DNA from: an uncultured Actinomycetes bacterium | Lineage (GTDB): Bacteria; Actinomycetota; Actinomycetes; S36-B12; CAIYMF01 | Length of the DNA stretch: 32,000 nucleotides | Reading direction: 5' to 3' | NCBI GenBank assembly: GCA_963843975.1 | Contig: CAWJMG010000003.1 | Location: 420,001-452,000 of the forward strand | Shown: one piece after another, positions 9,209 through 25,996 of the stretch | Position numbering within the stretch: the stretch's first letter is position 1 | Layout of the letters: each line of letters begins with the position of its first letter | Notes under the pieces: generated by a model | Databases searched by the model: none | Told to the model about the DNA's origin: nothing | Seen by the model: the letters and a program-made list of their open reading frames with translations, nothing else | Program-made: the position numbers and the translations under genes

Positions 9209-9289
9209 CGTCGTCCTGTCCGATCGGGCGCCCGGCTCGTCCCGCACGCTCTCGGCAGCAACGTACGGCGACCGCGTTTCATGCCCGGG

Positions 9290-9919
9290 TCAGACCCCCA
9301 GCAGGATGCGCAGCTGGGCGATGGACGCCGCCGGGTCGGTGGTGTCGAAGCGGAACGCCTGCAGGCCGGCCGCGCGTGCCCCCTCGACGTTGGCGGTGAG
9401 GTCGTCGACGAACAGGACGCGGTCGGGGGCTGCGCCGAGCAGCTCGACGGCGGCGGTGTACGACCCCGGGTCGGGCTTGCGGACGCCGATGTCGAGCGAG
9501 TCCACGATCCGCTCGAAGTAGCCGGCGTACTCCCAGGAGTCCTTCCAGCCCTCGCCCAGGAACTTGGTGGCGTCGTTGGTGAGGACCGCCTGTCGGTAGC
9601 GCTTGGGGATGTCGGCCAGCAGGCCGAGCACGACCGGTCGGCCGCGGCCGTCCCAGCCGAGCTCGCGCAGCGCGTCGTAAAGGTGCAGGCCCGGGACGGT
9701 CCCGCGGGCGAGCGACTCGATGTCGCGCCAGTACTCGGGCTCGTCGCGCTCGCCGGAGTCGACCTTGTCGTACTCGGCGTCCCCCTCGGGCACGAACGGG
9801 CCGCGCGGCAGGGTGCCCTGCGGCATGCCGGTGCGGGCCTCGAGCTCGCCGAACCGCTCGAACGGGCTCTGGTAGAGCACCTGGCCGATGTCCCACAGCA
9901 CGACGTCGATGCCGGTCAT
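9290..9919 (-). CDS. HAD-superfamily hydrolase (subfamily IA-like, DxG variant of motif I), paralog of 23953-24597
   Basis: ATG 9919 (GAAGGA upstream) overlaps the stop of the Rieske ferredoxin gene (ATGA). Motif I is VVLWDIGQVL, motif II is AVLTND, and motifs III/IV are VRKPDP...VLFVDDLTANVEGA. Confidence 0.8.
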   Translation of the reverse strand: MTGIDVVLWDIGQVLYQSPFERFGELEARTGMPQGTLPRGPFVPEGDAEYDKVDSGERDEPEYWRDIESLARGTVPGLHLYDALRELGWDGRGRPVVLGLLADIPKRYRQAVLTNDATKFLGEGWKDSWEYAGYFERIVDSLDIGVRKPDPGSYTAAVELLGAAPDRVLFVDDLTANVEGARAAGLQAFRFDTTDPAASIAQLRILLGV

Positions 9920-10284
9920 GGTCGTCCTTCCCGGGCGTGGGCGAGGAGCACCTCGCGGAGGCTGGGTGCGCGCACCGCGTCGGGCACGTCGACCTCGACG
10001 ACGCCGCCGACGATCCGCGCGGGGTAGGTGGGGAGGGGCTCGCCCTCGGTGTCGTGCCGGGCGCCGGTGCGCAGGTCGTACTGGAACAGGTGCGACGGGC
10101 AGGTGACCACGCCGTCGCGGATGACGCCGGTGACCAGGGACGCCTGGCGGTGGCGGCATGCGTCCTGCACGGCGTACGGCGAGCCGTCGACCAGCGCCAC
10201 GAGCACCGGGCAGGCCGCGGCCTCCACCCGGACTCGGCCGAGCCGCTGGAGTTCGGAGAGGTCGACTGCGACCGTCTGCGTCAT
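9916..10284 (-). CDS. Rieske [2Fe-2S] ferredoxin (oxygenase electron-transfer component)
   Basis: ATG 10284 overlaps the tautomerase stop (ATGA). About 122 aa. CRH-x16-CPSH is the Rieske cluster-binding motif. There is no catalytic domain. Confidence 0.85.
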   Translation of the reverse strand: MTQTVAVDLSELQRLGRVRVEAAACPVLVALVDGSPYAVQDACRHRQASLVTGVIRDGVVTCPSHLFQYDLRTGARHDTEGEPLPTYPARIVGGVVEVDVPDAVRAPSLREVLLAHAREGRP

Positions 10285-10499
10285 GAGGGCGCGGGGGCGT
10301 TCGGGTCGGTGCCGCGCGCGGTGGAGAAGGGCTCGCCGCCGATGCCCCACTCGTCGGGGGAGATCTCGTAGATCGCGACGCGGATGCGGTCCTTGGGGGT
10401 GCCGACGGCCTCGTGCATCGCCTCGGTGAGCCCGCGGATGAGGGCGTGCTTCTGCTCGACGGTGCGCCCCGCGACCATCGTGACCTGGATCAACGGCAT
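10281..10499 (-). CDS. 4-oxalocrotonate tautomerase family enzyme (2-hydroxymuconate tautomerase)
   Basis: 72 aa beginning MPLIQV (catalytic Pro-1 after Met removal). ...GRTVEQKHALIRGLTEAM... is typical of 4-OT. GAGGAG SD. It sits in the position equivalent to xylH/dmpI. Confidence 0.85.
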   Translation of the reverse strand: MPLIQVTMVAGRTVEQKHALIRGLTEAMHEAVGTPKDRIRVAIYEISPDEWGIGGEPFSTARGTDPNAPAPS

Positions 10500-10509
10500 G
10501 AGCGGCTCC

Positions 10510-11286
10510 TCACCGGAAGGCGATCTCGACCGAGCCGAGCCGGTCGAAGGATGCGACGACGCTGTCGCCGGGGGCGACGGGGATCGCCTCGGTCATGCCA
10601 CCGGCCATGACGATCTGCCCGGCCTCCAGGCCGAGGCCGCGCGCGGCCAGCGCGCGCACCAGCCACGCCACGGCTGCCGCCGGGTGGCCCATCACGGACG
10701 CTCCGGCGGCCGTCGAGACGAGCTCGCCGTTCTTCTGCAGCACGCAGCCGGTGAGGCGCAGGTCGATGCCGTAGGGGTCCAGCGGGGTGCCGCCGAGCAC
10801 GAACCCAGCCGAGGACGCATTGTCGGCCACCACGTCGTTGAAGGTGAACGCGTAGCCGGCGTAGCGGGAGTCGAGGATGTCGACCGCGCCGAACACCGCC
10901 TCCGTGGCGGCCAGCACGTGGGTGGCGCTGACGTGCGACCCCTCGAGGTCGCGCCCGAGCAGGAACGCGATCTCTGGCTCGACCCGCGGCTGGATGTAGT
11001 CGGCGCACCGCACGGTCTGCCCGGCGTCGACCTGCATGTCGGTGGTCAGCCAGCCGTACAGCGGCCGGTCCACCTTCATCTGCGTCATCTTCGCCTTGCT
11101 CGTGAGGCCGAGCTTGGCGCCCATGAGCGGGTTGCCCGCCTCGATGCGCGCTCGCACGACCGCGTCCTGCACCTGCAGCGCGGTCGCCTCGTCGAGCTCG
11201 CGGGTGTCGGTGAAGGGCGTGGTCGCCGTACGCGTCCGCACGGCCTCGAGCAGCGTGCCGACGAAGGACTCGATCTCGTCGCTCAT
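10510..11286 (-). CDS. 2-oxopent-4-enoate hydratase / 4-oxalocrotonate decarboxylase family protein; by gene order the decarboxylase (XylI/DmpH position)
   Basis: 258 aa. GAKLGLTS, QPRVEPEIAFLLG (acidic metal-ligand pair), [10 protein letters not shown]. The start ATG overlaps the aldolase stop (ATGA). The order hydratase-ADH-aldolase-this gene-4-OT mirrors xylJQKIH and dmpEFGHI. The decarboxylase versus hydratase call comes from synteny only. Confidence 0.7.
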   Translation of the reverse strand: MSDEIESFVGTLLEAVRTRTATTPFTDTRELDEATALQVQDAVVRARIEAGNPLMGAKLGLTSKAKMTQMKVDRPLYGWLTTDMQVDAGQTVRCADYIQPRVEPEIAFLLGRDLEGSHVSATHVLAATEAVFGAVDILDSRYAGYAFTFNDVVADNASSAGFVLGGTPLDPYGIDLRLTGCVLQKNGELVSTAAGASVMGHPAAAVAWLVRALAARGLGLEAGQIVMAGGMTEAIPVAPGDSVVASFDRLGSVEIAFR

Positions 11287-12353
11287 GCGGTCTTCCCCTC
11301 GGCCTCGGCGTGCTTGCGGGCTAGCTCGACCGCGACGTCGATGATCATGTCCTCCTGGCCACCGACCACCTTGCGCTTGCCGAGCTCGAGCAGGATCTCG
11401 GCCTGCGGGACTCCGTACCGCTCGGCGGCCCGCTCGGCGTGCAGCAGGAACGAGCCGTAGACGCCTGCGTAGCCGAGCAGCAGGCCCGCACGGTCGACCA
11501 CCTGCTGGCGCGGCATGAGCGGCCGGGTGACCTCCTCGGCGAGGTCCATGAGCATGAGCGGGTTGACGCCGCTGATGATGCCGTTCTTCTCGCAGACCGC
11601 GGCGAGGATCTCGGTGGGGCAGTTGCCCGCCCCGGCGCCGAGGCCGGCGCTGGTGCCGTCGAGGTTGCGCGCGCCCTCCTCGTACGCCGCGATGGAGTTC
11701 GCGACGGCGAGGGACAGGTTCTGGTGCGCGTGGACGCCGAGGGGGACGTCGATGCCGCCCACGATCTCGGCCACGCGGGCGCGGACCTCGTTGGTGGTCA
11801 TCGCACCGGCGGAGTCGGCGATGTAGACCGTGTCGGCGCCATAGCCCTCGAGCAGCTTCGCCTGCTGCAGGAGGCCCTGCGGCGTGTTCATGTGGCTCAT
11901 CATCAGGAAGCCGATGGCCTCCATGCCGAGCTCCTTGGCGATCTTGATGTGCTGCTGGGTGATGTCGGCCTCGGTGCAGTGCACGGCGATGCGCACGACG
12001 TTGACGCCGAGGTCGCGCACGCGGCGCAGCTCGTCGACGGTGCCGATGCCGGGGACGAGCAGCACGGCGATGTCGGCGTCGGTCGTGGCGTTCACGGCCG
12101 CCTCGACGAGCTTCATCTCGTCGACCTTGCTGAAACCGTAGTTGAACGACGAGCCGCCGAGGCCGTCGCCGTGCGTCACCTCGATGACCTGGACGCCGGC
12201 GGCGTCGAGGCCCTTCACGACGGCGACCACCTGGTCCTCGGTGTACTGGTGCGAGATCGCGTGCGAGCCGTCGCGCAGCGTCGAGTCGATGAGGCGGAAG
12301 TCCCGCTTCACCTCGGCCCCGGTCGTGGCTGCGGTGTCGATGGTGGCGGTCAT
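11283..12353 (-). CDS. dmpG: 4-hydroxy-2-oxovalerate aldolase
   Basis: The upstream part of track ORF 11283..12884 is junk. ATG 12353 overlaps the dehydrogenase stop (ATGA). [40 protein letters not shown] and [12 protein letters not shown] are hallmark DmpG/BphI/MhpE motifs. Confidence 0.93.
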
Positions 12354-13255
12354 GCCGAGACCTCCTGGTGCGCGGCGATGGCCTCGCCGACCCGGACCGC
12401 CGCGGCGGTCATGATGTCGAGGTTGCCGGCGTACGTCGGCAGGTAGTCGCCGGCGCCCTCCACCTCGAGCAGGACGACGGAGCGGAACGGCACGATGCCG
12501 CCCGGGGTGTTGAAGGGGCCTTCCTCGATGAGAGGAGGGGACTTGAGGCGGTAGCCCGGCACGTACTTCGCGACGTCGGCCACCATCTGCTCGATCGAGG
12601 CGACGACGGCGTCGTGGTCGGTGCCCTCGGGGAGAGCGCAGAACACCGTGTTGCGCATGAGGATCGGCGGCTCCGCCGGGTTGAGCACGATGATGGCCTT
12701 GCCGATCTCGGCGCCTCCGACCTCGACGAGCGCCTGGCGCGTGGTGCGCGTGAACTCGTCGATGTTGGCCCTCGTGCCGGGGCCGGCCGACTTCGACGAC
12801 ACTGCCGAGACCATCTCGGCGTACGGGACGCGCGTGACGCGGCTGACGGCGGCGACCATCGGGGTCGTGGCCTGGCCGCCGCACGTCACCATGTTGACGT
12901 TGATCGCGTCGAGGTGCTCCTCGAGGTTGACCGCTGCGATCACCTTCGGGCCGCGGGCCGCCGGCGTGAGGTCGACCGCGCGGATGCCGAGCTCCTCGAG
13001 CACCTTGGCGTGCCGCACGTGCGCGTAGGCGCTGGTGGCGTCGAACACCATCTTCACGGCGTCCGGGTTCTCGCGGACCCAGTCGATGCCGTTGCTCGGC
13101 GCCTCGTACCCGTGGTCGCGGGCCCGGGCGAGGCCGTCGCTCTCGGGGTCGATGCCGATGAGGGCGACGAGGTCGAGCGCCGTCGAGCGCTCGAGCTTGT
13201 ACATGAGGTCGGTGCCGATGTTGCCGGAGCCGATGATGGCGACGGGGAGTCCCAC
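12350..13255 (-). CDS. acetaldehyde dehydrogenase (acetylating), DmpF/BphJ/MhpF type
   Basis: GTG 13255 follows [23 protein letters not shown] (Rossmann fold), [14 protein letters not shown] (catalytic Cys), NLDIMTAAA. Paired with the aldolase, as in all meta-cleavage lower pathways. Confidence 0.93.
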
Positions 13256-13265
13256 GGTGTTCCCT

Positions 13266-14054
13266 TCAGACGATCCGGACGGAGACCGAGCCGAGCCGGT
13301 CGAACTCGGCCCGGTAGGTCTCACCAGCGGCGACCGGGACGGCTGCGTGCAGCGCCCCGGTCATGACGATCGAGCCCGCGGACAGCGATGCGCCGAGCGG
13401 GTGGAGAGTGCGGACGAGCCAGGCCACGGCGGCGGCGGGGTTGCCGAGGGCCGCGGCGCCGGCTCCGGTGGCGATGACCTCGCCGTCGCGGGTGAACACC
13501 ATCCCGAGGGTGCGCAGGTCGACGTCGGCGACGGGCGTGCTGGCGCCCCCGATGAGGATCGCGCCGCTGCTGGCCATGTCCGCGACGGTGTCGGGGAGCT
13601 TGATCCTCCAGTCGGCCACGCGGCTGTCGACGAGCTCGATCGAGGCGACGACGCCCTCGACGGCGCGCAGAACGTCCAGGGGGGTGCAGTGCGGGCCGGA
13701 CAGGTCGGCGCCGAGCACGAGCGCGATCTCTGCCTCGAGCTTCGGGGCGATGAAGTCGGTGAGCGCCACGGACGCACCGTCGTCGAGCACGTGCGAGGCC
13801 ATCACCGGCGCGAAGTCGGGGGAGTCGACGCCGAGCATCTGCTGCATCGGCTTGCTGGTCAGGCCGAGCTTGTAGCCGACGATGCGGTCGCCGTCCTCGA
13901 GGTAGCGGCGTACGACGCCCTGCTGGACGAGGTAGCCGTCCTCGAGGGTGAGGCCCGGGTCGGCCTCGGTGAGGGGCGGCACGGGCACCCGCGTGCGGCG
14001 CGCGTCGTACAGCGCGGCCGCGAGCTCGTCGGCGCGCTCGGGCGAGAGGGTCAT
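13266..14054 (-). CDS. 2-oxopent-4-enoate (2-keto-4-pentenoate) hydratase (XylJ/DmpE/MhpD position)
   Basis: 262 aa. [31 protein letters not shown]. The start ATG overlaps the IclR stop (ATGA). It is the first enzyme gene in xylJQKIH-like order. Confidence 0.8.
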
Positions 14055-14869
14055 CGCGTTCCTTCCTTGCGGGCGGGAGACTCGGCGAATCCCATGCGTC
14101 GGCTGATGGCTGCGGCCGCCTCGGTCACCGGGCGCACGTATCGGCGCAGCGTGGCGCCCTCCATGCGGGTCAGCGGGCCGGCGATGGAGAGGGCTGCGAC
14201 CACGACGCCGCGTCCGTCACGGATCGGCGCGGCGATCGACGCGACGCCGACCTCGGACTCGTTGACGTTCTCGGCCCATCCCTGCGCGAGCACGATCTGC
14301 AGCTGCGCGCGCAGCGTGGCCTGGTCGGAGATCGTGTACTGCGTCTTGCGCGGGAGCCGCCAGCCCGACAGCAGGGCGTCCAGCTCGGTCGCGGGCAGGT
14401 GGGCCAGCAGCACCTTGCCGGTGGACGTCGAGTGCGCGTCGTTGCGGTGGCCGACGCGACCGAAGAGGCGGATGGTCTGCGGGCTCTCGCGCCGCTCGAC
14501 GTAGACGACGTGGCGTCCGTCGAGGACCGCGATCTGCACGGTCTCCTTGGTGATGTTGCGCAGCTGCTCGATCACCGGGTTCGCCGCCGAGTGCAGGTCG
14601 ATCGCCGACTGCACGCTGGCACCGAGCTCGTGCATCGCGAGGGCGAGCCGGTAGGTGCCGGTGTCGGTGTCCTGCTCGAGCAGCCTCTCGACCGTCAGGG
14701 TGTGCAGGAGCCGGTGGGTGGTGCTCTTGCCCAGGCCGAGACGTCGCGCGAGCTCGCTGACGCCGATCTCGCGGTCGCCCTTGCCGAACTCCTTGAGCAG
14801 GCGGGCGGCGTTGCTCACGCTGGCGAGGACCTGGGTGTCGCCGACGGGACGGAGATCGCGATCGGCCAC
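14051..14869 (-). CDS. IclR-family transcriptional regulator
   Basis: Only the C-terminal 272 codons of track ORF 14051..15448 look coding. GTG 14869 lies 1 nt after the stop of the upstream gene. The winged HTH is IGVSELARRLGLGKSTTHRLLHTL. The effector domain is GRVGHRNDAHSTSTGKVLLA...GWAENVNESEVGVASIAAPI. Confidence 0.85.
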   Translation of the reverse strand: MADRDLRPVGDTQVLASVSNAARLLKEFGKGDREIGVSELARRLGLGKSTTHRLLHTLTVERLLEQDTDTGTYRLALAMHELGASVQSAIDLHSAANPVIEQLRNITKETVQIAVLDGRHVVYVERRESPQTIRLFGRVGHRNDAHSTSTGKVLLAHLPATELDALLSGWRLPRKTQYTISDQATLRAQLQIVLAQGWAENVNESEVGVASIAAPIRDGRGVVVAALSIAGPLTRMEGATLRRYVRPVTEAAAAISRRMGFAESPARKEGTR

Positions 14870-14870
14870 G

Positions 14871-15554
14871 TCAGCGAACCTCTGCCGGAGCACGCAGTGC
14901 TGCGAGCAGGGCGCGGCGGATGTCGGCGTCCTCGGAGCCGGGGGAGGCGCACACCGCGGCGAGCGCCGCGTCCCCGGGCGCGAGCTGCTGCGCGAGAAGT
15001 CGCACGGTCTGGTGCAGGCCGACGCGCTCGGCGACGGCGTACTCCTCGGCGAGGCCCGCTCGTGAGCCGGAGTTGGCCCGGATGGCGTCGTGGTCGCGGA
15101 AGAGCGCCGCGTGCTGGTTGGCGAGGCCGGTGCCCGCGTGCTGGGCGTGGTGCGGCGTGAGGCCGCCGCCGGGGGACACCGACAGGTGGTAGACGACGTC
15201 GGCGACGCCGAGCACCTGGCGCACAGCCGCCGGCTGGGCCGCCTCGGACTCGTCGATGCCACCGAGCCCCGGCGCCACGATCGGGTCGAAGAAGCGCAGG
15301 GTCCAGGCGAGGCCGGGGAGCGAGTCGTGCAGCTCGACCTCCTGCCCCTGCGGAGCGGGGAGCGGCGACGTGGTGGCGAGCACGTGGAGGTGGCGGACAC
15401 CGACCGCGAGCACGGTGAGGCTGTCCGTGCGGGTGAGCGGGAGGGCACCCTGCTCGCCGACCGGCAGGTGCCGAGCCTGGTCGAGGTAGGCGCCGTGCAA
15501 CGCGGCCACGAACTGGGCCATGGCGTCCCGCAGCTGGCCGGGGTCTGCGCTCAT
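14871..15554 (-). CDS. hypothetical protein, first gene of the minus-strand operon (no family recognised)
   Basis: The ORF track gives 14871..15677. I prefer ATG 15554 (MSADPGQLRDAMAQF...), which lies 7 nt downstream of TACCTT. Third-position GC is consistently high over 227 codons. The stop is 1 nt before the IclR start. Confidence 0.55.
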   Translation of the reverse strand: MSADPGQLRDAMAQFVAALHGAYLDQARHLPVGEQGALPLTRTDSLTVLAVGVRHLHVLATTSPLPAPQGQEVELHDSLPGLAWTLRFFDPIVAPGLGGIDESEAAQPAAVRQVLGVADVVYHLSVSPGGGLTPHHAQHAGTGLANQHAALFRDHDAIRANSGSRAGLAEEYAVAERVGLHQTVRLLAQQLAPGDAALAAVCASPGSEDADIRRALLAALRAPAEVR

Positions 15555-15636
15555 GTCGGGGAAGGTACGCCGATCCTGTCCCGCATGGCGGCACATCGGT
15601 CCACTGTGCGGGACGCGGCGGCCTACCTTCCCGGCC
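15555..15636. promoter_or_regulatory. 82-bp divergent control region: mirror-image TACCTTCCC boxes 4 nt from each ATG, plus a concentric 8-bp inverted repeat (candidate IclR operator)
   Basis: TACCTTCCC lies at 15624-15632 (+) and as a reverse complement at 15559-15567; each is followed by 4 nt and then ATG (15637 and 15554). GTCCCGCA (15578-15585) pairs with TGCGGGAC (15607-15614). The symmetry centres are 15595.5 and 15596. Neither start has an SD. Confidence 0.45.
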
Positions 15637-16545
15637 ATGGGCATCCTGCGGCTCGGCCACGTCGACGTGACGGTCACCGACCTCGACCTCGCGACGGCCT
15701 ACTACACCGAAGTGATGGGCATGATCGTCGTCGAGCGTGACGCCGACTCGGTCTACCTCAAGTGCTGGGACGAGGTGGACCACCACTCCCTGCGCCTCGT
15801 CTACGCACCCCGCGTCGGCCTCGACCTCATGGCTTTCAAGGTCGAGCGCGAGGACGACCTCGCCGACCTCGAGAAGGCTGTGAACCGCTACGGCTTCCCC
15901 GTGCAGCGGATCTCCAAGGGCGAGTCGGTCGGCCAGGGCGAGTCGATCCGGTTCGAGACGCCGTCGGGCCAGACGATGGAGCTGGTCCACGACGTCGAGA
16001 AGGTCGGCGGCCTGCTGCCGAAGATCAACCCGGCGCCGTTCGTCACCGGCATCCCCGGCATCGCGCCGCCGCGCATGGACCACCTGCTGGTGACGGCCGA
16101 GGAGGTCGGCGAGGCGACGACGTTCTACACGAGCGTCCTCGGCTTCCGCGTGACCGAGCAGCTGCTCGACGGCAACGGCCACCAGATCGGCACCTGGATG
16201 GAGCGCTCGTTCTCGCCGCACGACCTCGCGATCGTGTCCGGGCCCAACGGAGGCCTGCACCACTTCGCGTTCTGGCTGGACGACTGGGAGTCGGTGCGCA
16301 AGGCCGCCGACACGCTCGCCTACAACGGCATCCAGATCGACGTCGGCCCGACGCGCCACGGCGTGACGCGGGGGAGCACCATCTACTTCTTCGACCCGCT
16401 GGGCACGCGCAACGAGGTCTTCACCGGCGGCTACCGCCCCGACCCCGACTTCCCGACGATCACCTGGACCGAGGACAACATCGGACGGGCCGTCTTCTAC
16501 TACGAGGGCGAGCTCAACGACCGCTTCATGAAGGTGCACACCTGA
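15637..16545 (+). CDS. catechol 2,3-dioxygenase-type extradiol dioxygenase (two-domain VOC, type I), copy 1
   Basis: The ORF track gives 15520..16545. ATG 15637 gives MGILRLGHVDVTV. The predicted Fe ligands are the His in PRMDHLLV, the His in GGLHHFAF and the Glu in GTRNEVFTGGY. 302 aa. Confidence 0.9.
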   Translation: MGILRLGHVDVTVTDLDLATAYYTEVMGMIVVERDADSVYLKCWDEVDHHSLRLVYAPRVGLDLMAFKVEREDDLADLEKAVNRYGFPVQRISKGESVGQGESIRFETPSGQTMELVHDVEKVGGLLPKINPAPFVTGIPGIAPPRMDHLLVTAEEVGEATTFYTSVLGFRVTEQLLDGNGHQIGTWMERSFSPHDLAIVSGPNGGLHHFAFWLDDWESVRKAADTLAYNGIQIDVGPTRHGVTRGSTIYFFDPLGTRNEVFTGGYRPDPDFPTITWTEDNIGRAVFYYEGELNDRFMKVHT

Positions 16546-18538: not shown

Positions 18539-19629
18539 TGACGACCATCACCTGGTTCGAGAGCTACTGGGCCGGCATGAAGAGCGAGGTCGGCGGCAAG
18601 GCGGCCAGCCTCGGCGAGATGACCGGCGCCGGCCTGCCCGTCCCGCCCGGCTTCGCGATCACGACGTCGTCCTACCGCCGGGCGCGCGACGAGTCCGATC
18701 TCGACGCGCAGATCGCGCGGCTGCTGCACGGGCTCGACACGTCGAACACCGACATGGTCTCCGAGCGCTGCGCGAAGATCCGCCAGGCGATCGCCACGAT
18801 GCCGATCCCCGAGGGCATCGAGCTGCAGATCCGCGGCGCCTACCTCGAGCTCGGCGCCCGGTTCGGCATGAAGGACGTCCCGGTCGCCGTCCGGTCGTCC
18901 GCCACCTCGGAGGACTCGCCCGACGCGTCCTTCGCGGGCGAGCACGACACCTACCTCTGGGTGCGCGGCGCCGAGGACGTGATCGACGCCGTACGCCGGT
19001 GCTGGGCGAGCCTGTTCACCGACCGCGCCACCTGCTACCGCGTCGAGATGGGCTACGACCACCGCACCGTCGAGATGTGCGTGGTCATCCAGAAGATGGT
19101 GACGCCGAAGGCCGCAGGCGTGGCGTTCACGCTGGACCCGACCAACGGCGACCGCTCGCAGGTCGCGATCGACGCGGCGTGGGGCTTCGGCGAGGCCGTC
19201 GTCGCGGGAGAGGTCACTCCGGACAACTACCGCGTCGACAAGGTGATGCTCGACATCACCAAGCGCATCGTCAGCGAGAAGTCGCACGAGTATGTGCTGA
19301 CCGACCACGACACCGTCGAGAAGGTCGAGACGACGCCCGAGCGCGCCTCGGCACCGTGCCTGACCGACGTGGAGATCAAGGCCATCACCAAGCTCGCCAA
19401 GACGGCCGAGCGCCACTACGGCTGCCCGCAGGACATCGAGTGGGCCGTCGACCTCGACCTCCCCGAGGGCGACAACATCATCCTGCTCCAGTCCCGGCCC
19501 GAGACCTTCTGGAGCAAGAAGGGTCCGACGACGGTCGTCGAGCCGGGCACCAAGAGCGGCGACTTCATGTCGAGCATCGTCTCGACGCTGATGTCGCCGC
19601 TCTACACGAAGGGGGCGGACGGTCCCTGA
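18538..19629 (+). CDS. PEP/pyruvate-binding (PPDK_N, ATP-grasp) domain protein; phenylphosphate synthase beta (PpsB)-like dikinase subunit
   Basis: ATG 18538 shares its A with the upstream TGA. VGGKAASLGEM...GLPVPPGFAITT, VAVRSSATSEDSPDASFAGEHDTYL, CWASLF..RA..YR and AGVAFTLDP are the N-terminal nucleotide-binding module of PEP synthase/PPDK. At 363 aa it lacks the swivel-His domain. Confidence 0.85.
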   Translation: MTTITWFESYWAGMKSEVGGKAASLGEMTGAGLPVPPGFAITTSSYRRARDESDLDAQIARLLHGLDTSNTDMVSERCAKIRQAIATMPIPEGIELQIRGAYLELGARFGMKDVPVAVRSSATSEDSPDASFAGEHDTYLWVRGAEDVIDAVRRCWASLFTDRATCYRVEMGYDHRTVEMCVVIQKMVTPKAAGVAFTLDPTNGDRSQVAIDAAWGFGEAVVAGEVTPDNYRVDKVMLDITKRIVSEKSHEYVLTDHDTVEKVETTPERASAPCLTDVEIKAITKLAKTAERHYGCPQDIEWAVDLDLPEGDNIILLQSRPETFWSKKGPTTVVEPGTKSGDFMSSIVSTLMSPLYTKGADGP

Positions 19630-19725
19630 CCGGCTGTCCGTGGCACGTCGTTCCACCCCCGCGACCGCGCGCTGTGCGGTCGTCCACCCCAGTGAAGACC
19701 CGCAAGGGTTCTAGAAGGAGACCGC

Positions 19726-21537
19726 ATGGCTGGGTTCCCGCTCCCGTCGGAGATCACCACTCCGCCCGGCGCCGAAGGCTGGCAGGAGCTGTACGCGTAC
19801 TCGTCGACGTGCAGCCCCGCGCGCGCCGAGTACGAGGACTCGATGTTCTGGTTCCAGGACGGTGTGCACTGGCCCAAGGCCCTGCTGCCGTGGGACGCCT
19901 CCCTCATGGAGGTGGCGATCATGGCGCTGTCGCAGTACAACACCCGCCACCTGCTCGTCCCGCCGGCCAACGGCATCGACTTCCGTATCGTGAACGGGTA
20001 CACGTACCTCTCGCCCGTGCCGGCTCCCGAGGCCGACATCCCCGCCCGCGCCGAGCAGTTCATGCAGCGCGCCGGCCACTACTTCATGAACTGGAACGAC
20101 CTCTACGACAACTGGCTCATCAAGATCCGCGACCTGGTCAAGGAGATGGAGGGCATCACCTTCGAGACCCTCCCGGACGTCGAGCCCATGGAGGTCGTCA
20201 CCTCCGGTGCAGGCAAGGGCGCGGGCGGCGCGCTGCAGGCGAACTACCTCCACCTGCTCACCTCGGCCAGCACCCTGTGGCAGTACCACTTCGAGTTCCT
20301 CAACCTCGGCTACGCCGCCTACCTCGACTTCTTCGGCTTCTGCAAGCAGGCCTTCCCCGGCATCTCCGACCTCGCCATCGCCAAGATGGTCGCGGGCGTC
20401 GAGGTCGACCTGTTCCGCCCGGACGAGGAGCTCAAGCGGCTCGCCCGCATGGCCGTCGACACCGGCATCACCGACGCCTTCAAGCTCGGCGACGTCGAGG
20501 GCACCTGCGAGGCCCTGCGCGCCAAGGGCGACGCCGGCCAGGCCTGGATCTCGTCGTTCCAGCAGTCGGCCGAGCCGTGGTTCAACTTCTCGACCGGCTC
20601 CGGCTTCTCGAGCCAGGACAAGATCTGGATCGAGAACGTCGAGATCCCGTTCGACTTCATCAAGGGCTACATCGACAACCTCCAGAAGGGCGACGACATC
20701 AACCGCCCGACGGAGGCGATCTCCGCCGAGCGCGACCGCATCGTGTCGGAGTACGTCGCCCTGCTCGGCTCGGACGAGGACCGCGAGGCCTTCAACGGCA
20801 AGCTCGGTCTCGCCCGCGTGGTGTTCCCGTACGTCGAGAACCACAACTTCTACGTCGAGCACTGGAGCCACTCGGTCATCTGGCGCAAGATGAAGGAGCT
20901 CGGGGCGATCTTCGCCAAGGAGGGCTTCCTCGCCGAGCCCGAGGACATCTTCTTCATGAAGCGCCACGAGATCCCGGACGCTCTCTTCGACCTGTACCAC
21001 TCGTGGGCTGCTCCCGCGGTGGCCGCAGGCCCGTCGTACTGGCCCGGGATCATTGCCAAGCGCAAGTCGATCCACGCGGCGCTCAACGCCTGGAAGCCGA
21101 CGCCGGCCCTCGGCACCCCGCCGGAGGTCGTCACCGAGCCCTTCACGATCATGCTCTGGGGCATCACGTCGGACTCCATCGCCAACTGGCTCGGCGGCGG
21201 CGCGAGCGAGGACGGCTCCCTCAACGGCATGGCGGCCTCGCCCGGTGTCGAGGAGGGCCCGGCCCGTGTCATCTTCGGGCCCGACCAGATCAACGAGGTG
21301 CAGGACGGCGAGATCCTCGTCGCCCCGCTCACCGCGCCGAGCTGGGCGCCGATCTTCGGCAAGATCAAGGCGACCGTCACGGACACCGGCGGCATGATGA
21401 GCCACGCCGCCATCGTCTGCCGCGAGTACGGCCTCCCGGCCGTGACCGGCACCGGCTTCGCCACCAGCCTCATCAAGACGGGCCAGCGGATCCGCGTGGA
21501 CGGCTCCAACGGCAAGGTCACGATCCTCGACGACTAA
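19726..21537 (+). CDS. PEP-utilising-enzyme mobile-domain protein; phenylphosphate synthase alpha (PpsA)-like dikinase subunit
   Basis: GAAGGAG SD. 603 aa. The C-terminal swivel domain is GEILVAPLTAPSWAPIFGKIKATVTDTGGMMSHAAIVCREYGLPAV, with the phospho-His intact. The large N-terminal domain (about 480 aa) has no ATP-grasp and is presumed to bind substrate. Confidence 0.85.
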   Translation: MAGFPLPSEITTPPGAEGWQELYAYSSTCSPARAEYEDSMFWFQDGVHWPKALLPWDASLMEVAIMALSQYNTRHLLVPPANGIDFRIVNGYTYLSPVPAPEADIPARAEQFMQRAGHYFMNWNDLYDNWLIKIRDLVKEMEGITFETLPDVEPMEVVTSGAGKGAGGALQANYLHLLTSASTLWQYHFEFLNLGYAAYLDFFGFCKQAFPGISDLAIAKMVAGVEVDLFRPDEELKRLARMAVDTGITDAFKLGDVEGTCEALRAKGDAGQAWISSFQQSAEPWFNFSTGSGFSSQDKIWIENVEIPFDFIKGYIDNLQKGDDINRPTEAISAERDRIVSEYVALLGSDEDREAFNGKLGLARVVFPYVENHNFYVEHWSHSVIWRKMKELGAIFAKEGFLAEPEDIFFMKRHEIPDALFDLYHSWAAPAVAAGPSYWPGIIAKRKSIHAALNAWKPTPALGTPPEVVTEPFTIMLWGITSDSIANWLGGGASEDGSLNGMAASPGVEEGPARVIFGPDQINEVQDGEILVAPLTAPSWAPIFGKIKATVTDTGGMMSHAAIVCREYGLPAVTGTGFATSLIKTGQRIRVDGSNGKVTILDD

Positions 21538-21547
21538 GGGCAGCCTG

Positions 21548-21584
21548 TCCCGCCTGGGGGGCCGAATACGCCCCCCAGGCGGGA
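21548..21584 (+). terminator. strong GC hairpin (14-bp stem, 9-nt loop) in the 106-bp gap between dikinase and oxygenase genes; internal terminator/attenuator candidate
   Basis: tcccgcctgggggg (21548-21561), loop ccgaatacg, then ccccccaggcggga (21571-21584) is the exact reverse complement. Only a weak T-run (cttt) follows, about 15 nt downstream. Confidence 0.45.
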
Positions 21585-21643
21585 TGCTCCGTCAGACTTT
21601 CCGCAGCAGCATCCCCAGCACCGCCGCACACCGGAGGAACCGC

Positions 21644-22897
21644 ATGCTCACCGTGGAGCAGAACAACGAGCTCACGCAGATCGGCCCGGGCACGCCCATG
21701 GGCGAGCTGCTCCGGCGCTACTGGTACCCCATCGCGTTCGAGCAGGACTTCGACACGGTGCCGTCCAAGACGGTCCGGCTGCTGAGCGAGGACTGGACCC
21801 TCTACAAGACCCCGAGCGGCAAGTACGGGATCATCGGCGAGAAGTGCGCGCACCGCCGCGCCTCCCTCACCTACGGCGTCGTCCACGAGGACGGCATCCG
21901 CTGCGGCTACCACGGCTGGAAGTACGACTTCGACGGCCAGTGCACCGAGCAGCCGGCCGAGGCCGACAACCAGAACTTCCGCGACCGCGTGAAGATGAAG
22001 GCGGGCAAGGCCCAGCCGATGGGCGGCATGGTCTGGGTGTACGTCGGCCCCGACCCCGCGCCCGAGCTGCCGCGCTTCGACGTGTTCGTCAAGGACGGCA
22101 TCCGCGACGTCGGCTACACCGTCATCCCGTGCAACTGGCTCCAGATCATGGAGAACTCCGTCGACCCGCACCACGTCGAGTGGCTGCACGGCTACTACTT
22201 CAACTTCCTCGGCGAGACCAACGGCTTCGAGGCTCCGAAGGCGTTCCAGAAGAAGCACATGAAGACCGGCTTCGACGAGATGGAGTGGGGCATCCTCAAG
22301 CGTCGCGTCCTGGAGGGCGGGACCGAGGAGAACGACGACTGGAAGATCGGCCACCCGCTCGTCTTCCCGTTCTACATGCGCGTCGGCGGCGCCTACATCG
22401 ACCAGATGCAGATCCGCGTGCCGATCGACGAGACGCACACCTGGAAGCTCTTCTACTCCACGCACAACCCGGGGGAGAAGCTCACCACCCAGGAGCGCCC
22501 GCACGTGTACGAGTACCTCTGGAAGGACGAGGACGGCCGGTTCATCACCGACTACATCGAGGGCCAGGACGTCATGGCCTGGGTGTCGCAGGGTGAGATC
22601 ACCGACCGCACCCAGGAGCACCTCGGCCGCTCCGACGCCGGTGTGGCCCTGCTGCGCAAGATGTTCAAGGAGAACATGCGCAAGGTGGCCAACGGCGAGG
22701 ACCCGATCGGCACCGTGCGCAACAAGCACGACATCATCAATCTGCCCTGCGAGAAGGACAAGTTCGGGGCCGAGCGCACCTTCGCGGCCGCCTGGATCAA
22801 CGGCGGCTCGATGCGCTACAGCCCCATCAAGGACGAGCTCCTCGCGCTGCACGAGTCCTACTGGTCCGACCTGGAGAAGGCCGAAGCAGGTGCCTGA
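21644..22897 (+). CDS. Rieske non-heme iron oxygenase, alpha-only type (phthalate-dioxygenase-like family), no beta subunit gene
   Basis: ATG 21644 with GGAGG 6 nt upstream. The N-terminus is ELTQIGPGTPMGELLRRYWYP. The Rieske motif is CAH-x16-CGYHGW. The mononuclear iron motif is NSVDPHHVEWLH. 417 aa. Confidence 0.9.
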   Translation: MLTVEQNNELTQIGPGTPMGELLRRYWYPIAFEQDFDTVPSKTVRLLSEDWTLYKTPSGKYGIIGEKCAHRRASLTYGVVHEDGIRCGYHGWKYDFDGQCTEQPAEADNQNFRDRVKMKAGKAQPMGGMVWVYVGPDPAPELPRFDVFVKDGIRDVGYTVIPCNWLQIMENSVDPHHVEWLHGYYFNFLGETNGFEAPKAFQKKHMKTGFDEMEWGILKRRVLEGGTEENDDWKIGHPLVFPFYMRVGGAYIDQMQIRVPIDETHTWKLFYSTHNPGEKLTTQERPHVYEYLWKDEDGRFITDYIEGQDVMAWVSQGEITDRTQEHLGRSDAGVALLRKMFKENMRKVANGEDPIGTVRNKHDIINLPCEKDKFGAERTFAAAWINGGSMRYSPIKDELLALHESYWSDLEKAEAGA

Positions 22898-23186
22898 CGA
22901 GCGATCCGAGGTGGTGGCGCGGGCTGCTGATGCCGCGCCGCTGCCGCTCGACCCGCACGAGCTGCCCGATCCTGGGCAGTGGTTCGCCCCGGACGCCGAG
23001 CGGCACTACCTCGACCGGCCGAAGTTCTGCCCGATGTGCGCGGCCTCGATCGGCGAGCACGGCGGGATCACGACCGAGTACTGGACCGGCGACACCCGCA
23101 ACTTCATGACCTGGTGCGGGGAGTGCGGCTGGTTCGGCGAGGTGGTGCGGTTCGACCGCGTCACGATCATGGAGGAGGAGCACTGA
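22890..23186 (+). CDS. small Cys4 (CPMC...CGEC) zinc-ribbon/rubredoxin-like protein of unknown function
   Basis: This is the C-terminal part of track ORF 22593..23186. GTG 22890 would overlap the oxygenase gene by 8 nt, but the start is uncertain (in-frame GTGs also at 22911 and 22914). Third-position GC is high. KFCPMCAASIGEHGG...MTWCGECGWFGEV. Confidence 0.5.
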   Translation: MPDERSEVVARAADAAPLPLDPHELPDPGQWFAPDAERHYLDRPKFCPMCAASIGEHGGITTEYWTGDTRNFMTWCGECGWFGEVVRFDRVTIMEEEH

Positions 23187-23200
23187 ACCCGGTCGCCGGC

Positions 23201-23956
23201 GTGGACGTGGAGTCCGCTGCCGAGCTGCTGGACGGTGCCCACCTTCGAGGTGTCCTGCTCGAGGCCGTCGACGTGCGCGTCGGCGGCCTCGCTGCTGCCT
23301 ACGGCGTCCAGGACGCCCTGACCGCGCGGCGCCTCGCCCGCGGCGCGACGCGCATCGGGTGGAAGCTCGGCTACACGTCGGCCGTGATGCGCGCGCAGAT
23401 GGGGATCGGGGAGCCCAACCTCGGGCCGCTGCTGTCGAGCATGGTCGTCACGGACGTGCTCGACGACCGATTCGTGCAGCCGCGCGTCGAGCCTGAGATC
23501 GCCCTCGTGCTCGGGGAGGACCCCGGGCCGGGCGCGGGTGTCCAGGAGGTGCTGGGCGCGTGCCGGTCGGCTCACGTGGCGCTGGAGGTCGTCGACTCGG
23601 TCTGGGCCGGCTACGTGTTCGACCTCGAGCACAACACGGCCGACGGGTCGTCCGCTGCGGGGGTCGTCCTGGGTGACGAGATCCCGCTCGACCGGCTCGA
23701 CGAGGTGCGCGTGGCCCTGCACGTCGACGGGGTCGAGGTGGGGAGCGGGCGCGGCGCGGACGCGTCCGGGCACCCGGCGCTCGGGATCGCGTGGCTGTCT
23801 GCGCGGCTCGCCGAGCGGGGCCTGGCGCTGGCCGACGGCGACGTCGTGATCACCGGTGGGCTGACGGCGGCGCACCCGCTCGCGCCAGGATCGACCGTGT
23901 CGGCGGTCTTCTCGCACGACGGGTTCGGCTCACGGACGGTGGAGGTACGACGGTGA
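23201..23956 (+). CDS. third member of the 2-oxopent-4-enoate hydratase / 4-oxalocrotonate decarboxylase family
   Basis: This is the C-terminal part of track ORF 22979..23956. The start is uncertain (GTG 23201 or 23207, or CTG 23183 just after GGAGGAGGAG). GWKLGYTS, QPRVEPEIALVLG, GHPALGIAWL. Confidence 0.75.
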   Translation: MDVESAAELLDGAHLRGVLLEAVDVRVGGLAAAYGVQDALTARRLARGATRIGWKLGYTSAVMRAQMGIGEPNLGPLLSSMVVTDVLDDRFVQPRVEPEIALVLGEDPGPGAGVQEVLGACRSAHVALEVVDSVWAGYVFDLEHNTADGSSAAGVVLGDEIPLDRLDEVRVALHVDGVEVGSGRGADASGHPALGIAWLSARLAERGLALADGDVVITGGLTAAHPLAPGSTVSAVFSHDGFGSRTVEVRR

Positions 23957-24597
23957 AGGCGCTCGTGCTCGACTTCGGCGGCCCCGTGCTGCGCACGCCG
24001 TTCGAGCTGCTGCGCGGCGGCGAGACGCGGATGGGTCTGCCGACCGGATCGCTCGCGTGGACCGGCCCGTTCGACCCGTCCGCCGACGCCGACTGGCGGG
24101 CGATGCAGGCGCACGAGATCACCGAGCGCGACTACTGGCAGCGCAAGGCCGACGAGTTCGCCTCGCTCACGGGGCGCGAGGCGTCGTTCCGCGGGCTCAT
24201 GGACGTGCTGTTCGCCGCGCCGGAGGACGAGCTCGTGCGGCCCGAGGCGCGTCGCCTCGTCGAGGACGCGCGCGAGGCGGGCTTCGCGATCGCCGTCCTC
24301 ACCAACGACATGCAGGCCTTCCACGGGCTCGAGTGGGTGCAGAGCAACAGGTTCCTGACGCTCGTAGACGTGCTCGTCGACGGATCGGTCGAGCACGTGC
24401 TCAAGCCCGATCCGGCGATCTACGAGATGGCCACCGACCGGCTGGGGATCGCCGCGGCGGACTGCCTGTTCGTCGACGACCAGCCCGGCAACATCGCCGG
24501 CGCCGAGGCCGTGGGGATGGCAGCGGTCTGGTTCGACGTCACGCACCCGGAGTCGTCGTACGCGAAGGTGCGGGCATTGCTCGGGATGGGTGGCTGA
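23953..24597 (+). CDS. HAD-superfamily hydrolase (DxG motif-I variant), paralog of 9290-9919
   Basis: GTG 23953 overlaps the upstream stop (GTGA). Motif I is LVLDFGGPVL, motif II is AVLTND, and motifs III/IV are VLKPDP...CLFVDDQPGNIAGA. The cap region TPFELLRGGETRMGLPTGSLAWTGPF aligns with SPFERFGELEARTGMPQGTLPRGPF of the other copy. Confidence 0.8.
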   Translation: MKALVLDFGGPVLRTPFELLRGGETRMGLPTGSLAWTGPFDPSADADWRAMQAHEITERDYWQRKADEFASLTGREASFRGLMDVLFAAPEDELVRPEARRLVEDAREAGFAIAVLTNDMQAFHGLEWVQSNRFLTLVDVLVDGSVEHVLKPDPAIYEMATDRLGIAAADCLFVDDQPGNIAGAEAVGMAAVWFDVTHPESSYAKVRALLGMGG

Positions 24598-24661
24598 GGA
24601 TGTCTGCGACGCGACCGCCCGCGAGCGCCCTCGCGGGGTGCCTCTGTGGTGGGATCGGCTC

Positions 24662-25996
24662 GTGACCTTCCGTGCTGCCGTCGTCGGCGCCGGGCCCTCG
24701 GGCCTGTACGCGGCCGACGCCCTTGCCTCTGCCGGTGTCCACGTCGACGTGATCGAGCGGCTGCCCGTGCCGTTCGGGCTCGTGCGCTACGGCGTCGCGC
24801 CCGACCACTTCTCGATCCGCTCCGTCCGCGACACCCTCGCGAAGGTCCTGGCGCGGCCCGAGGTGCGGCTGCTGGCCGGTGTCGAGGTGGGCGTCGACGT
24901 CACAGTCGACGAGCTCGTCGCGGCGTACGACGCGGTGGTGCTGACCTACGGCGCCTCGCGCGACCGGCACCTCGACGTCCCGGGCGAGGACCTGCCCGGC
25001 AGCGTCGCGGCCACCGACCTCGTCAACTGGTACTGCGGCCACCCGGACGCCGACCGCTCTGCGATCGAGGCCGCGCTGTCCGGCGTCACGTCGGCCGTGG
25101 TGATCGGCGTCGGGAACGTCGCGGTCGACGTCGCCCGCGTGCTCGTCGCTCCGGCCGAGCGCCTTGCGGCCACGGACATGCCTCAGCACGTGCTCGACGT
25201 GCTCGCCTCCACCGGGATCACCGACGTGCACGTGCTCGGCCGGCGTACGGCGGCGCACGCCAACTGGACGACGAAGGAGCTGCGCGAGCTCGGCGAGCTC
25301 GACGGCGTGGACGTCGCGTGCGGAGAGGTCGAGCTCGTGTCGGAGCCGGTCGCGGACCGCCTCGACGCCGACGACCGCGTCGTGCACCGCAACCTCGAGG
25401 TGCTGCACGAGTGGTCGCACCGCGCACCCACCGACGCCGGCAAGCGGATCCACCTGCACTTCCACGCGCGACCGGCGGAGCTGCGCGGCACCGACCGCGT
25501 CGAGACGCTCGTGGTCGAGCGCACGCGCGTCGACGACGACGGCAGCGCGCACGGCACGGGCGAGACATGGGAGCTCCCGGCCCAGCTCGTGATCCGTTCG
25601 GTCGGCTACCGCGGCGAGCCGCTCGAGGGCGTGCCGTTCGACCCGCGCCGCAACGTCGTGCGCAACGACGAGGGCCGCGTAGTCGACGAGTCTGGCGCGC
25701 AGGTGCCCGGGCTGTACGTCGCCGGATGGATCAAGCGCGGGCCCAGCGGGATCATCGGCACCAACAAGAAGGACGCCGGCGCCACGGTCGCGCACCTGCT
25801 CGAGGACCTCGAGGGCCGCTCGGCGCGCGAGGGTGACGGCGTCGTACCCCTGCTCGCCTCGCGCGGCGTCACGCCCGTGGGCCTCGCCGGCTGGGAGTCG
25901 ATCGACGCCGCCGAGCGTGCCCTCGGCGCGACCCAGGGCCGCGACCGCACGACGCTGCACGACCGCGACTCCCTCATAGCCGCCACCCGCCCCTGA
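24662..25996 (+). CDS. FprA / adrenodoxin-reductase-type NADPH:ferredoxin oxidoreductase
   Basis: The ORF track gives 24590..25996. GTG 24662 places AAVVGAGPSGLYAA near the N-terminus, as in FprA; GTG 24590 is the alternative. The family signature comprises PFGLVRYGVAPDH, VIGVGNVAVDVARVL (NADPH site) and VGYRGEP...GWIKRGPSGIIGTNK. Confidence 0.85.
   Translation: MTFRAAVVGAGPSGLYAADALASAGVHVDVIERLPVPFGLVRYGVAPDHFSIRSVRDTLAKVLARPEVRLLAGVEVGVDVTVDELVAAYDAVVLTYGASRDRHLDVPGEDLPGSVAATDLVNWYCGHPDADRSAIEAALSGVTSAVVIGVGNVAVDVARVLVAPAERLAATDMPQHVLDVLASTGITDVHVLGRRTAAHANWTTKELRELGELDGVDVACGEVELVSEPVADRLDADDRVVHRNLEVLHEWSHRAPTDAGKRIHLHFHARPAELRGTDRVETLVVERTRVDDDGSAHGTGETWELPAQLVIRSVGYRGEPLEGVPFDPRRNVVRNDEGRVVDESGAQVPGLYVAGWIKRGPSGIIGTNKKDAGATVAHLLEDLEGRSAREGDGVVPLLASRGVTPVGLAGWESIDAAERALGATQGRDRTTLHDRDSLIAATRP

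Follow-up and report, generated by a model that had tools for sequence, protein, structure and literature searches.

A conserved actinobacterial gene cluster that probably joins phenol phosphorylation to a Rieske oxygenase and meta-cleavage

Phosphorylation of a phenolic hydroxyl as a handle is known from few systems, namely, Pps (anaerobic phenol), Cre (4-cresol, with a P450), and Hpe/Acv (acetovanillone, with a carboxylase). The enzymes PpsAB, CreHI, and HpeHI are two-component dikinases that phosphorylate the hydroxyls of phenol, 4-cresol, and hydroxyphenylethanones, respectively (PMC12167813, PMC9618137). The Cre pathway is aerobic and oxygenase coupled: CreHI phosphorylates 4-cresol, the P450 CreJ together with CreE and CreF oxidizes the phosphorylated substrate, and CreD removes the phosphate (PMC9549646, PMC7764795, PMC12167813). 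Here, we analyzed a stretch of 32,000 nucleotides (the window) from an uncultured Actinomycetes bacterium (contig CAWJMG010000003.1, positions 420,001 to 452,000), in which genes for a split dikinase lie among those for a Rieske oxygenase, phosphatases, and two extradiol dioxygenases. We regard the cluster as real, widely conserved, and uncharacterized, and it probably uses phosphate as a handle in the manner of Cre, combined with a Rieske oxygenase and meta-cleavage. If this is true, the cluster would represent a fourth type of handle system, in which both the coupling to a Rieske oxygenase and the route into extradiol ring cleavage would be firsts. The phosphate-handle strategy itself is already known and not categorically new, and the anomaly of the locus, a missing semialdehyde dehydrogenase gene, looks like lineage-specific gene loss or relocation.

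The window has a G+C content of about 71%; gene calls were based on GC at third codon positions and on the context of start codons, and the called genes were scanned against Pfam and NCBIfam. The gene inventory of an earlier note, drawn up by a model from the letters of this DNA, was borne out almost exactly, and four genes absent from its list were added, coding for an IclR regulator, an orphan protein of 227 amino acids (aa) designated Unk227, a small protein with four cysteines (4-Cys), and a third FAA-family protein. The two divergent operons it had described indeed surround an intergenic control region of exactly 82 bp (15555-15636, no strand). For the comparative analysis, the dikinase large subunit was searched against a genome collection, which gave 576 confirmed matches, and the best 80 loci, each from a different species, were examined by mapping all window proteins onto them; all counts out of 80 refer to these best 80 loci. 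Further contigs (L088 and L090 to L094) were fetched around Unk227 homologues so that the region past the Rieske ferredoxin gene could be seen and are not part of the dikinase-query set, while a metagenome scan with the 4-oxalocrotonate decarboxylase (4-OD) protein, made with the same aim, yielded three short contigs only.

The dikinase small subunit (18538-19629, + strand) is an ATP-grasp protein resembling CreI, PpsB, and HpeI (PF01326, E=1.7e-113), and the large subunit (19726-21537, + strand; 603 aa) resembles CreH, PpsA, and HpeH, carries PF00391 at the C terminus, and matches PRK08296 with 815 bits. The pair thus has the split architecture of two-component aryl-OH dikinases, a PF01326 subunit plus a larger PF00391 subunit, and in the latter a substrate-binding domain is followed by a C-terminal swivel domain. 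The swivel domain contains the motif GGMMSH(560)AAI and with it the phospho-carrier His of aryl-OH dikinases, a required residue that is His581 in HpeH (PMC12167813). Identities of the large subunit were 54% to the cre type (L081, L082), 48% to the hpe type (L087), and 46% to PpsA (L086), and those of the small subunit were 50-52%, 45%, and 48% (PpsB), respectively; the cre, hpe, and pps types are only 43-47% identical among themselves. In a small neighbor-joining tree, the window-type large subunits formed a clade of their own beside the cre type. Because of the split architecture, the lack of a phosphoenolpyruvate (PEP)/pyruvate domain, and the 46-54% identity of the large subunit, a place among the phenol-OH dikinases is well supported for this enzyme by its sequence, and the phenylphosphate-synthase type proposed in the earlier note is upheld.

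The alternative would be a PEP-synthase-like or antibiotic-phosphotransferase enzyme that works outside the aromatic pathway, for example, in recycling pyruvate from the aldolase, and that came to lie here by chance. Automatic annotation does name the subunits "pyruvate, water dikinase," and models of PEP synthase and RPH are among the matches of the ATP-grasp subunit. However, PRK08296-type models cover the large subunit at full length, whereas PEP synthase and RPH models match its swivel domain only; no PEP/pyruvate TIM-barrel domain was found in the dikinase by Pfam and NCBIfam scans; and matches of the large subunit to RPH are partial and reach 24-35% identity, compared with 46-54% for the aryl-OH dikinases. 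Moreover, synteny with the oxygenase and the dioxygenases is invariant in the 80 loci. We regard this alternative as extremely improbable, and the candidates PEP synthase and rifampicin phosphotransferase were both rejected on the architecture and on the identity to the pps, cre, and hpe enzymes.

Full-length relatives of the dikinase were found by a protein search of plasmids, and their type was assigned from gene context. In Rhodococcus pRB98 and R. ruber Y14, the context is IclR, P450, small subunit, large subunit, short-chain dehydrogenase/reductase, ferredoxin, reductase, HD phosphohydrolase, and aldehyde dehydrogenase, the same gene set and order as in the Corynebacterium glutamicum cre operon as tabulated in PMC7764795. 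Both cre-type clusters (L081 and L082) are complete and stand beside toluene/aromatic monooxygenase gene sets, an arrangement that fits conversion of toluene to p-cresol followed by Cre processing on mobile plasmids. In Azoarcus sp. KH32C (pps-ppc, L086), ppsABC adjoins annotated phenylphosphate carboxylase genes, and in Rhodococcus sp. JS3073 (hpe type) the dikinase adjoins a biotin carboxylase and a CoA ligase.

Cre (creHI, creJEF, creG, creC, and creD in C. glutamicum, with orthologous clusters on pRB98 and in Y14) is the closest functional precedent for the window cluster. The earlier note had named carboxylase-coupled systems only and knew of no described pathway with this organization; a pairing of aryl phosphorylation with oxygenases is, however, already realized in the CreHI kinase, the CreJ/E/F P450 system, and CreD. 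Common to both systems are aerobic character, a two-component dikinase (54% in the large subunit), an IclR regulator adjoining the genes, and, by analogy in the window, an oxygenase that is served by a separate ferredoxin and reductase and would act on an aryl phosphate before a dedicated phosphohydrolase. In contrast, no P450 was found in the window by Pfam scans and a Rieske oxygenase stands in place of CreJ, a histidine phosphatase and a HAD hydrolase stand in place of the HD-domain CreD, and neither the CreG alcohol dehydrogenase nor the CreC aldehyde dehydrogenase is present in the window; thus, side-chain oxidation to 4-hydroxybenzoate is unlikely here. The Cre pathway leads to 4-hydroxybenzoate/protocatechuate, whereas the window cluster leads into two extradiol dioxygenases and meta-cleavage and adds Unk227 and the 4-Cys protein. 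When the features of Cre membership were tested on the window cluster, the kinase was the only one found.

The other two systems share less with the window. Hpe/Acv (HpeHI/AcvAB, a biotin carboxylase, and HpeD, acting on acetovanillone and 4-hydroxyacetophenone) likewise has a two-component phenolic dikinase (48% to the Rhodococcus sp. JS3073 large subunit) and a HAD-type phosphatase after the phosphate-dependent step, for which the window has a possible analogue. Its phosphate-dependent enzyme, however, is a carboxylase with vanillate/4-hydroxybenzoate as products, whereas the window has an oxygenase and no carboxylase genes. PpsABC with phenylphosphate carboxylase (Thauera, Aromatoleum, and Azoarcus sp. 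KH32C) has homologous A and B subunits (46% and 48%) but is anaerobic and works with PpsC, which is a CBS-domain protein, and with a carboxylase of the UbiD type, both of which are missing from the window cluster. No pathway composed of a dikinase, a Rieske oxygenase, and an extradiol dioxygenase was described in the full-text literature searched, a result that is suggestive only, as most subscription-journal papers lie outside its coverage.

The same core order, IclR-Unk227 divergent from EDO1-EDO2 (extradiol dioxygenases), HisPhos (histidine phosphatase), DikS-DikL (dikinase small and large subunits), the Rieske oxygenase, CysSmall (the 4-Cys protein), and HAD-B, recurred in 80/80 loci, and core genes missing from single loci mostly coincided with contig ends. 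Since these loci come from different species, the arrangement is far beyond chance. The core spans several actinobacterial orders, with Longivirga, many Nanopelagicales-labeled metagenome-assembled genomes (MAGs), Nocardioides, Micromonospora, Blastococcus, Nostocoides, and Streptosporangiaceae among the 80, and the closest named genome is that of Longivirga aurantiaca, whose dikinase large subunit is 98% identical. The pairing of the dikinase with oxygenases noted earlier is therefore a matter of tight and wide coinheritance of the dikinase, the Rieske oxygenase, the phosphatases, and both extradiol dioxygenases. The lower pathway is modular: it adjoins IclR in the window type, follows the reductase on its downstream side in the Nocardioides type, and does not occur in some loci. 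Variable components are HAD-A, the third FAA-family gene, and the FprA reductase. Given its wide conservation in at least 80 species-level genomes, from soil genera (Nocardioides, Micromonospora, and Blastococcus) to freshwater Nanopelagicales-type MAGs, the cluster could be a quantitatively relevant route for the turnover of phenolic, lignin-derived, or humic-derived compounds. A cultured carrier, L. aurantiaca CGMCC 4.7317, makes it directly testable.

The oxygenase (21644-22897, + strand; PF00355 and PF19301) is an alpha-only enzyme of the phthalate/LigXa family, found in 77/80 loci with a median identity of 77%. It has an intact Rieske motif, CxH-x17-CxxH, and an intact iron motif (E/DxxxDxxHxxxxH), ENSVDPHHVEWLH, and no beta-subunit gene (PF00866) was found in the window. 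With phthalate 4,5-dioxygenase, LigXa, TsaM, PobA, and VanA, it shares the Rieske and iron motifs, the lack of a beta subunit, and a LigXa_C-like C-terminal domain. Among solved structures, the phthalate 4,5-dioxygenases 7fhr and 7fjl come closest (E about 1e-46), although its catalytic domain aligns with phthalate dioxygenase only partly, and JGI automatic annotation of its cluster mates points to LigXa-type O-demethylases. Unlike the phthalate family, the window oxygenase is accompanied by a Rieske-type [2Fe-2S] ferredoxin (9916-10284, - strand; PF00355, with a CxH...CxxH motif; 50/80 loci) and by an FprA/adrenodoxin-reductase-type NADPH:ferredoxin reductase (about 24662-25996, + strand; PDB 1lqt FprA, E=1.3e-94; 26/80 loci) with an uncertain start at 24590, 24638, or 24662; in Nocardioides-type loci, a PDR-like reductase with FNR and Fer2 domains takes the place of the FprA type. 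Sequence alone cannot separate hydroxylation, O-demethylation, and ipso-dioxygenation for this oxygenase.

Three phosphatase-family genes had been listed in the earlier note, and all three are present, but only two of them are conserved parts of the cluster. HisPhos (17453-18538, + strand; PF00300; 361 aa) is an atypical member of the histidine phosphatase superfamily, with RHG at 109 and HSG at 289 and an N-terminal extension of about 100 aa, and was found in 75/80 loci; its frame shares bases with those of both neighbors, EDO2 on the upstream side and the dikinase small subunit on the downstream side. HAD-B (23953-24597, + strand; PF00702, TIGR02247-like; 65/80 loci) has the motif I DFGGP and is a candidate aryl-phosphate phosphatase, by analogy the counterpart of HpeD, the NagD-like, HAD-type phosphatase of the Hpe pathway (PMC9618137). 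HAD-A (9290-9919, - strand; DxGxV type) is lineage specific, being found in 3/80 loci plus L088, L090, and L091.

Taking these features together, we think it reasonably probable that the cluster serves the catabolism of a phenolic compound under the control of IclR and uses phosphate as a handle with a Cre-like logic of kinase, oxygenase, and phosphatase, for which Cre and the HAD phosphatase HpeD of the Hpe pathway provide the precedent. The most plausible substrate would be phenol, a 4-alkylphenol, or a methoxyphenol; the substrate class, the action of the oxygenase on the phosphorylated form, and the division of labor between the phosphatases are what we infer. By homology, the two-component dikinase would first phosphorylate the phenolic hydroxyl, converting ATP to AMP and Pi. 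NADPH would then supply electrons, by way of the FprA reductase and the Rieske ferredoxin, to the alpha-only Rieske oxygenase, which may oxygenate the dianionic aryl phosphate adjacent to the ester, a substrate suggested by the nearest solved relatives, which act on dianionic phthalate. One outcome would be ortho-hydroxylation or O-demethylation to a catechol monophosphate, from which HAD-B and/or HisPhos would take off the phosphate to give catechol, by analogy with CreD and HpeD.

In the other outcome, the oxygenase would dioxygenate the aryl phosphate at the ipso/ortho positions (angular type) and phosphate would leave spontaneously, which would yield catechol in one step, as sulfonate-, amine-, and ether-eliminating dioxygenases do with their leaving groups, and would leave the phosphatases as safety valves or regulators. 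Phosphate is a good leaving group, the closest solved relatives are true dioxygenases on dianionic phthalate, and no dihydrodiol dehydrogenase was found by Pfam scans in any variant, the relatives' loci included. Nevertheless, HisPhos and HAD-B are as conserved as the oxygenase, and HisPhos overlaps both neighboring frames, which argues for a stoichiometric role of the phosphatases; the JGI annotation also places the oxygenase nearest to O-demethylases of the monooxygenase type. We consider this one-step route plausible but rather unlikely, and direct elimination would in any case leave two conserved phosphatases unexplained.

From catechol onward, the proposed route would follow classical meta-cleavage. 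EDO1 (15637-16545, + strand) is a XylE-type catechol 2,3-dioxygenase (TIGR03211, 380 bits, above cutoff; PDB 1mpy and 5znh, E about 1e-78), and EDO2 (16545-17456, + strand) is a XylE-type extradiol dioxygenase as well (TIGR03211, 344 bits, above cutoff). The two are 53% identical, and the XylE residues H153, H199, H214, H246, Y255, and E265 are kept in both, by which an inactive subunit was ruled out, the catalytic residues being complete in each. Nothing in EDO1 or EDO2 pointed to an anion-binding pocket upon comparison with the XylE residues, and both look like ordinary XylE-type enzymes. From this strong homology, they would be expected to cut catechol or a 4-substituted catechol to 2-hydroxymuconic semialdehyde.

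The lower pathway is present in the xylJQKIH order reported in the earlier note. It comprises a DmpE/XylJ-like 2-oxopent-4-enoate hydratase (13266-14054, - strand; best NCBIfam match TIGR03220, 264 bits, below cutoff), a DmpF/XylQ-like acylating acetaldehyde dehydrogenase (12350-13255, - strand; TIGR03215, 433 bits, above cutoff), a DmpG/XylK-like 4-hydroxy-2-oxovalerate aldolase (11283-12353, - strand; TIGR03217, 498 bits, above cutoff), a 4-OD-like 4-oxalocrotonate (2-oxo-3-hexenedioate) decarboxylase of the DmpH/XylI type (10510-11286, - strand; best NCBIfam match TIGR03218, 249 bits, below cutoff), and a 72-aa 4-oxalocrotonate tautomerase (4-OT; 10281-10499, - strand; TIGR00013, 68.8 bits, above cutoff) with a Pro after the initiator Met. 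The ring-fission product would thus enter the 4-oxalocrotonate (dehydrogenative) branch, in which a semialdehyde dehydrogenase, 4-OT, 4-OD, the hydratase, the aldolase, and the acylating dehydrogenase would act. The window cluster has the XylE-type dioxygenases, these five lower-pathway enzymes, and their gene order in common with xyl/dmp meta-cleavage, but xyl/dmp makes catechol by a phenol hydroxylase or toluate dioxygenase, whereas the window cluster presumably does so via an aryl phosphate, and two tandem dioxygenases are found here. A further difference concerns XylG, which xyl/dmp has and which is missing in the window lineage but present in relatives. In addition, no XylF-type hydrolase was found in any cluster variant, which agrees with ring-fission products of the aldehyde type, formed from catechol or 4-substituted catechols. 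In L093 (11540-13542), the lower operon lacks the aldolase and the acylating dehydrogenase and keeps the hydratase, 4-OD, 4-OT, and an aldehyde dehydrogenase.

Pfam scans of all plausible open reading frames of the 32-kb window revealed no PF00171 aldehyde dehydrogenase and no alpha/beta-hydrolase, and tblastn of the window with XylG-like queries revealed no dehydrogenase; hence, the two methods agree with the earlier note that a XylG/DmpC-type dehydrogenase and a XylF/DmpD/BphD-type hydrolase are absent from the window. A protein-database query for a xylG homologue in the genome of the window, made with the N-terminal fragment from L004, returned truncated proteins only and none from the contig of the window, a return too fragmentary to count as absence from the genome. 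Among the relatives, the lower operons of the Nocardioides, Micromonospora, and Blastococcus types end with a PF00171 protein of about 490 aa, for which NCBIfam gives 2-hydroxymuconic semialdehyde dehydrogenase and HpaE as the best matches. With an N-terminal query, a XylG-like dehydrogenase was found inside the cluster in 27/80 loci, including L064, where it lies within the upper operon. In L090, a MAG from the Frankiales whose dikinase is 88% identical and is encoded at the same chromosomal site by the gyrB-like gene, 4-OD and 4-OT are followed by a 494-aa aldehyde dehydrogenase, the Rieske ferredoxin, and HAD-A, and in L093 and L094 the dehydrogenase likewise lies between 4-OT and the Rieske ferredoxin. 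In the window, L088 (Unk227 90% identical), and L092, by contrast, 4-OT is followed by the Rieske ferredoxin with no dehydrogenase between them, and in the window these two genes overlap by four bases. L091 (15284-19037) has an aldehyde dehydrogenase split over three frames, a Rieske ferredoxin that is also split, and shortened HAD-A and luciferase-like products, with the upstream genes intact; its distal operon reflects either decay or a long-read assembly error.

Family assignments, synteny, and the dehydrogenase in relatives are all supported directly by the sequence analysis. Since the gene is present in 27/80 loci and in L090, L093, and L094, these data are most simply read as showing an ancestral and frequent member of the cluster, the dehydrogenase, that was lost or relocated in some lineages, the window included, and its absence from the window, L088, L092, and Longivirga-type loci looks like such a lineage-specific loss or relocation. 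In this lineage, either a gene elsewhere in the genome would have to provide the dehydrogenase step, or the pathway would be leaky or truncated. The local absence is real but is no evidence on pathway chemistry, and the comparative loci led us to discard the idea of a pathway defined by the lack of this gene.

This bears on the chemistry put forward in the earlier note, here widened to 3-methoxycatechols and esters, in which the aryl phosphate would become a 3-O-phospho (or 3-hydroxy/3-methoxy) catechol and proximal cleavage would give 2-hydroxymuconate, or an acyl phosphate or ester, directly; the semialdehyde dehydrogenase and hydrolase would be needless, and the extra phosphatases would hydrolyze the acyl phosphate. 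Such a scheme is chemically coherent, and extradiol cleavage of pyrogallol or 3-methoxycatechol does yield an acid or an ester. It is also in line with the conservation of two phosphatase families and two dioxygenases and with the retention of 4-OT and 4-OD without a local dehydrogenase in the window, L088, L092, and many loci where the ferredoxin follows 4-OT. The XylG/DmpC/HpaE-like gene embedded in the same cluster elsewhere, however, indicates that the cluster family as a whole makes the semialdehyde, and the absent dehydrogenase and hydrolase can no longer be taken as a sign of direct 2-hydroxymuconate formation. In addition, both dioxygenases are of the ordinary XylE type, with no evident anion-binding changes, and the cluster lacks both a dihydrodiol dehydrogenase and a second hydroxylase with which a trihydroxylated ring could be made. 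In view of the comparative data, the case made for this chemistry falls away, and we judge the scheme conceivable in the present lineage but very unlikely.

Several points weigh against the preferred Cre-like module with release of phosphate before ring cleavage. The action of the Rieske oxygenase on a phosphorylated intermediate is inferred from coinheritance and the CreJ analogy; monohydroxylation needs only one of the two conserved phosphatases; and the proposal gives no reason for two conserved dioxygenases, Unk227, or the 4-Cys protein. Furthermore, 4-OT and 4-OD persist in the window, L088, L092, and many loci of the Nanopelagicales type even though no dehydrogenase is encoded locally, which is compatible with a dehydrogenase-independent source of 2-hydroxymuconate. 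For the dehydrogenase-less lineages (the window, L. aurantiaca, and many of the Nanopelagicales type), we therefore also considered, as a quite unlikely variant, that the phosphate is kept through ring cleavage or that a pyrogallol-type intermediate is formed, with one of the dioxygenases giving 2-hydroxymuconate or an acyl phosphate and the phosphatases finishing the reaction. In another form of this proposal, the Rieske oxygenase would be the first known aryl-phosphate dioxygenase, with phosphate serving as both recognition handle and leaving group.

On the regulator side, the IclR-family transcriptional regulator (14051-14869, - strand; PF09339 and PF01614; 68/80 loci) starts directly after the stop codon of Unk227 (14871-15554, - strand; 68/80 loci), the first gene of this operon. 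Mirror-symmetric TACCTT boxes, -10-like with the pattern TANNNT, lie 6-7 nt ahead of both divergent ATGs (window 15549-15642), and this position suggests that both divergent transcripts are leaderless. The inner palindrome of the divergent promoter, GTCCCGCA-N21-TGCGGGAC, is kept across Longivirga, Nanopelagicales, and Nocardioides-type loci and is likely an operator for IclR. In Nocardioides-/Micromonospora-type loci (L040, L041, L043, L046, L051, and others), a conserved extra peptide, MADVNGVTGH..LAEGTPAGT.., is encoded about 270 bp upstream of EDO1; it belongs either to EDO1, as an extension of its N terminus, or to a separate small open reading frame ahead of it.

The cluster holds two conserved proteins annotated without function. 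Unk227, always the first gene of the IclR-side operon in this cluster, had no match in Pfam or NCBIfam, and its family consists of 335 homologue clusters, every one named hypothetical. Its alignment revealed an invariant His-rich motif, PGGGLTPHHAQHAGTGLANQHAA, and seven invariant His residues; an AlphaFold2 model (pLDDT 92) gave no fold match in the PDB, and a metal-binding accessory protein or sensor is possible. The second, the 4-Cys protein (about 22911-23186, + strand, with a start at 22890 or 22911; CPxC...WCxxC; 72/80 loci), always follows the Rieske oxygenase directly, a further difference from the phthalate family, and has four invariant Cys in 71 aligned loci. It matched nothing in Pfam or NCBIfam, and the confidence of a single-sequence AlphaFold2 model (pLDDT 54) was too low for use; the protein may be a zinc-ribbon or rubredoxin-like accessory.

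Two further genes accompany the cluster. The third FAA-superfamily protein, of the MhpD/XylI/XylJ family (23201-23956, + strand; PF01557, with weak TIGR03218 and TIGR02312 matches), is variable and occurs in 10/80 loci. A luciferase-like monooxygenase of the Atu2307/SP_0267 family (8177-9247, - strand; TIGR03858, 512 bits) is encoded 43 bp downstream of HAD-A. It was considered as a replacement for the dehydrogenase and rejected, since no consistent pattern emerged across loci: it occurs without the dehydrogenase in the window and L088, occurs together with it in L091, and is absent from L090, L092, L093, and L094, and L092 has neither gene. The monooxygenase may be an operon passenger.

The cluster is flanked by housekeeping genes (gyrB/parE-like, GGDEF, sigma factor, carbonic anhydrase, and gyrA/parC-like), with the gyrB/parE-like gene (3892-6120, + strand) on one side and the gyrA/parC-like gene (30231-31889, - strand) on the other. 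A gyrB-like gene adjoins the cluster also in L088, L090, and L091, which indicates that the insertion site is conserved among close relatives.

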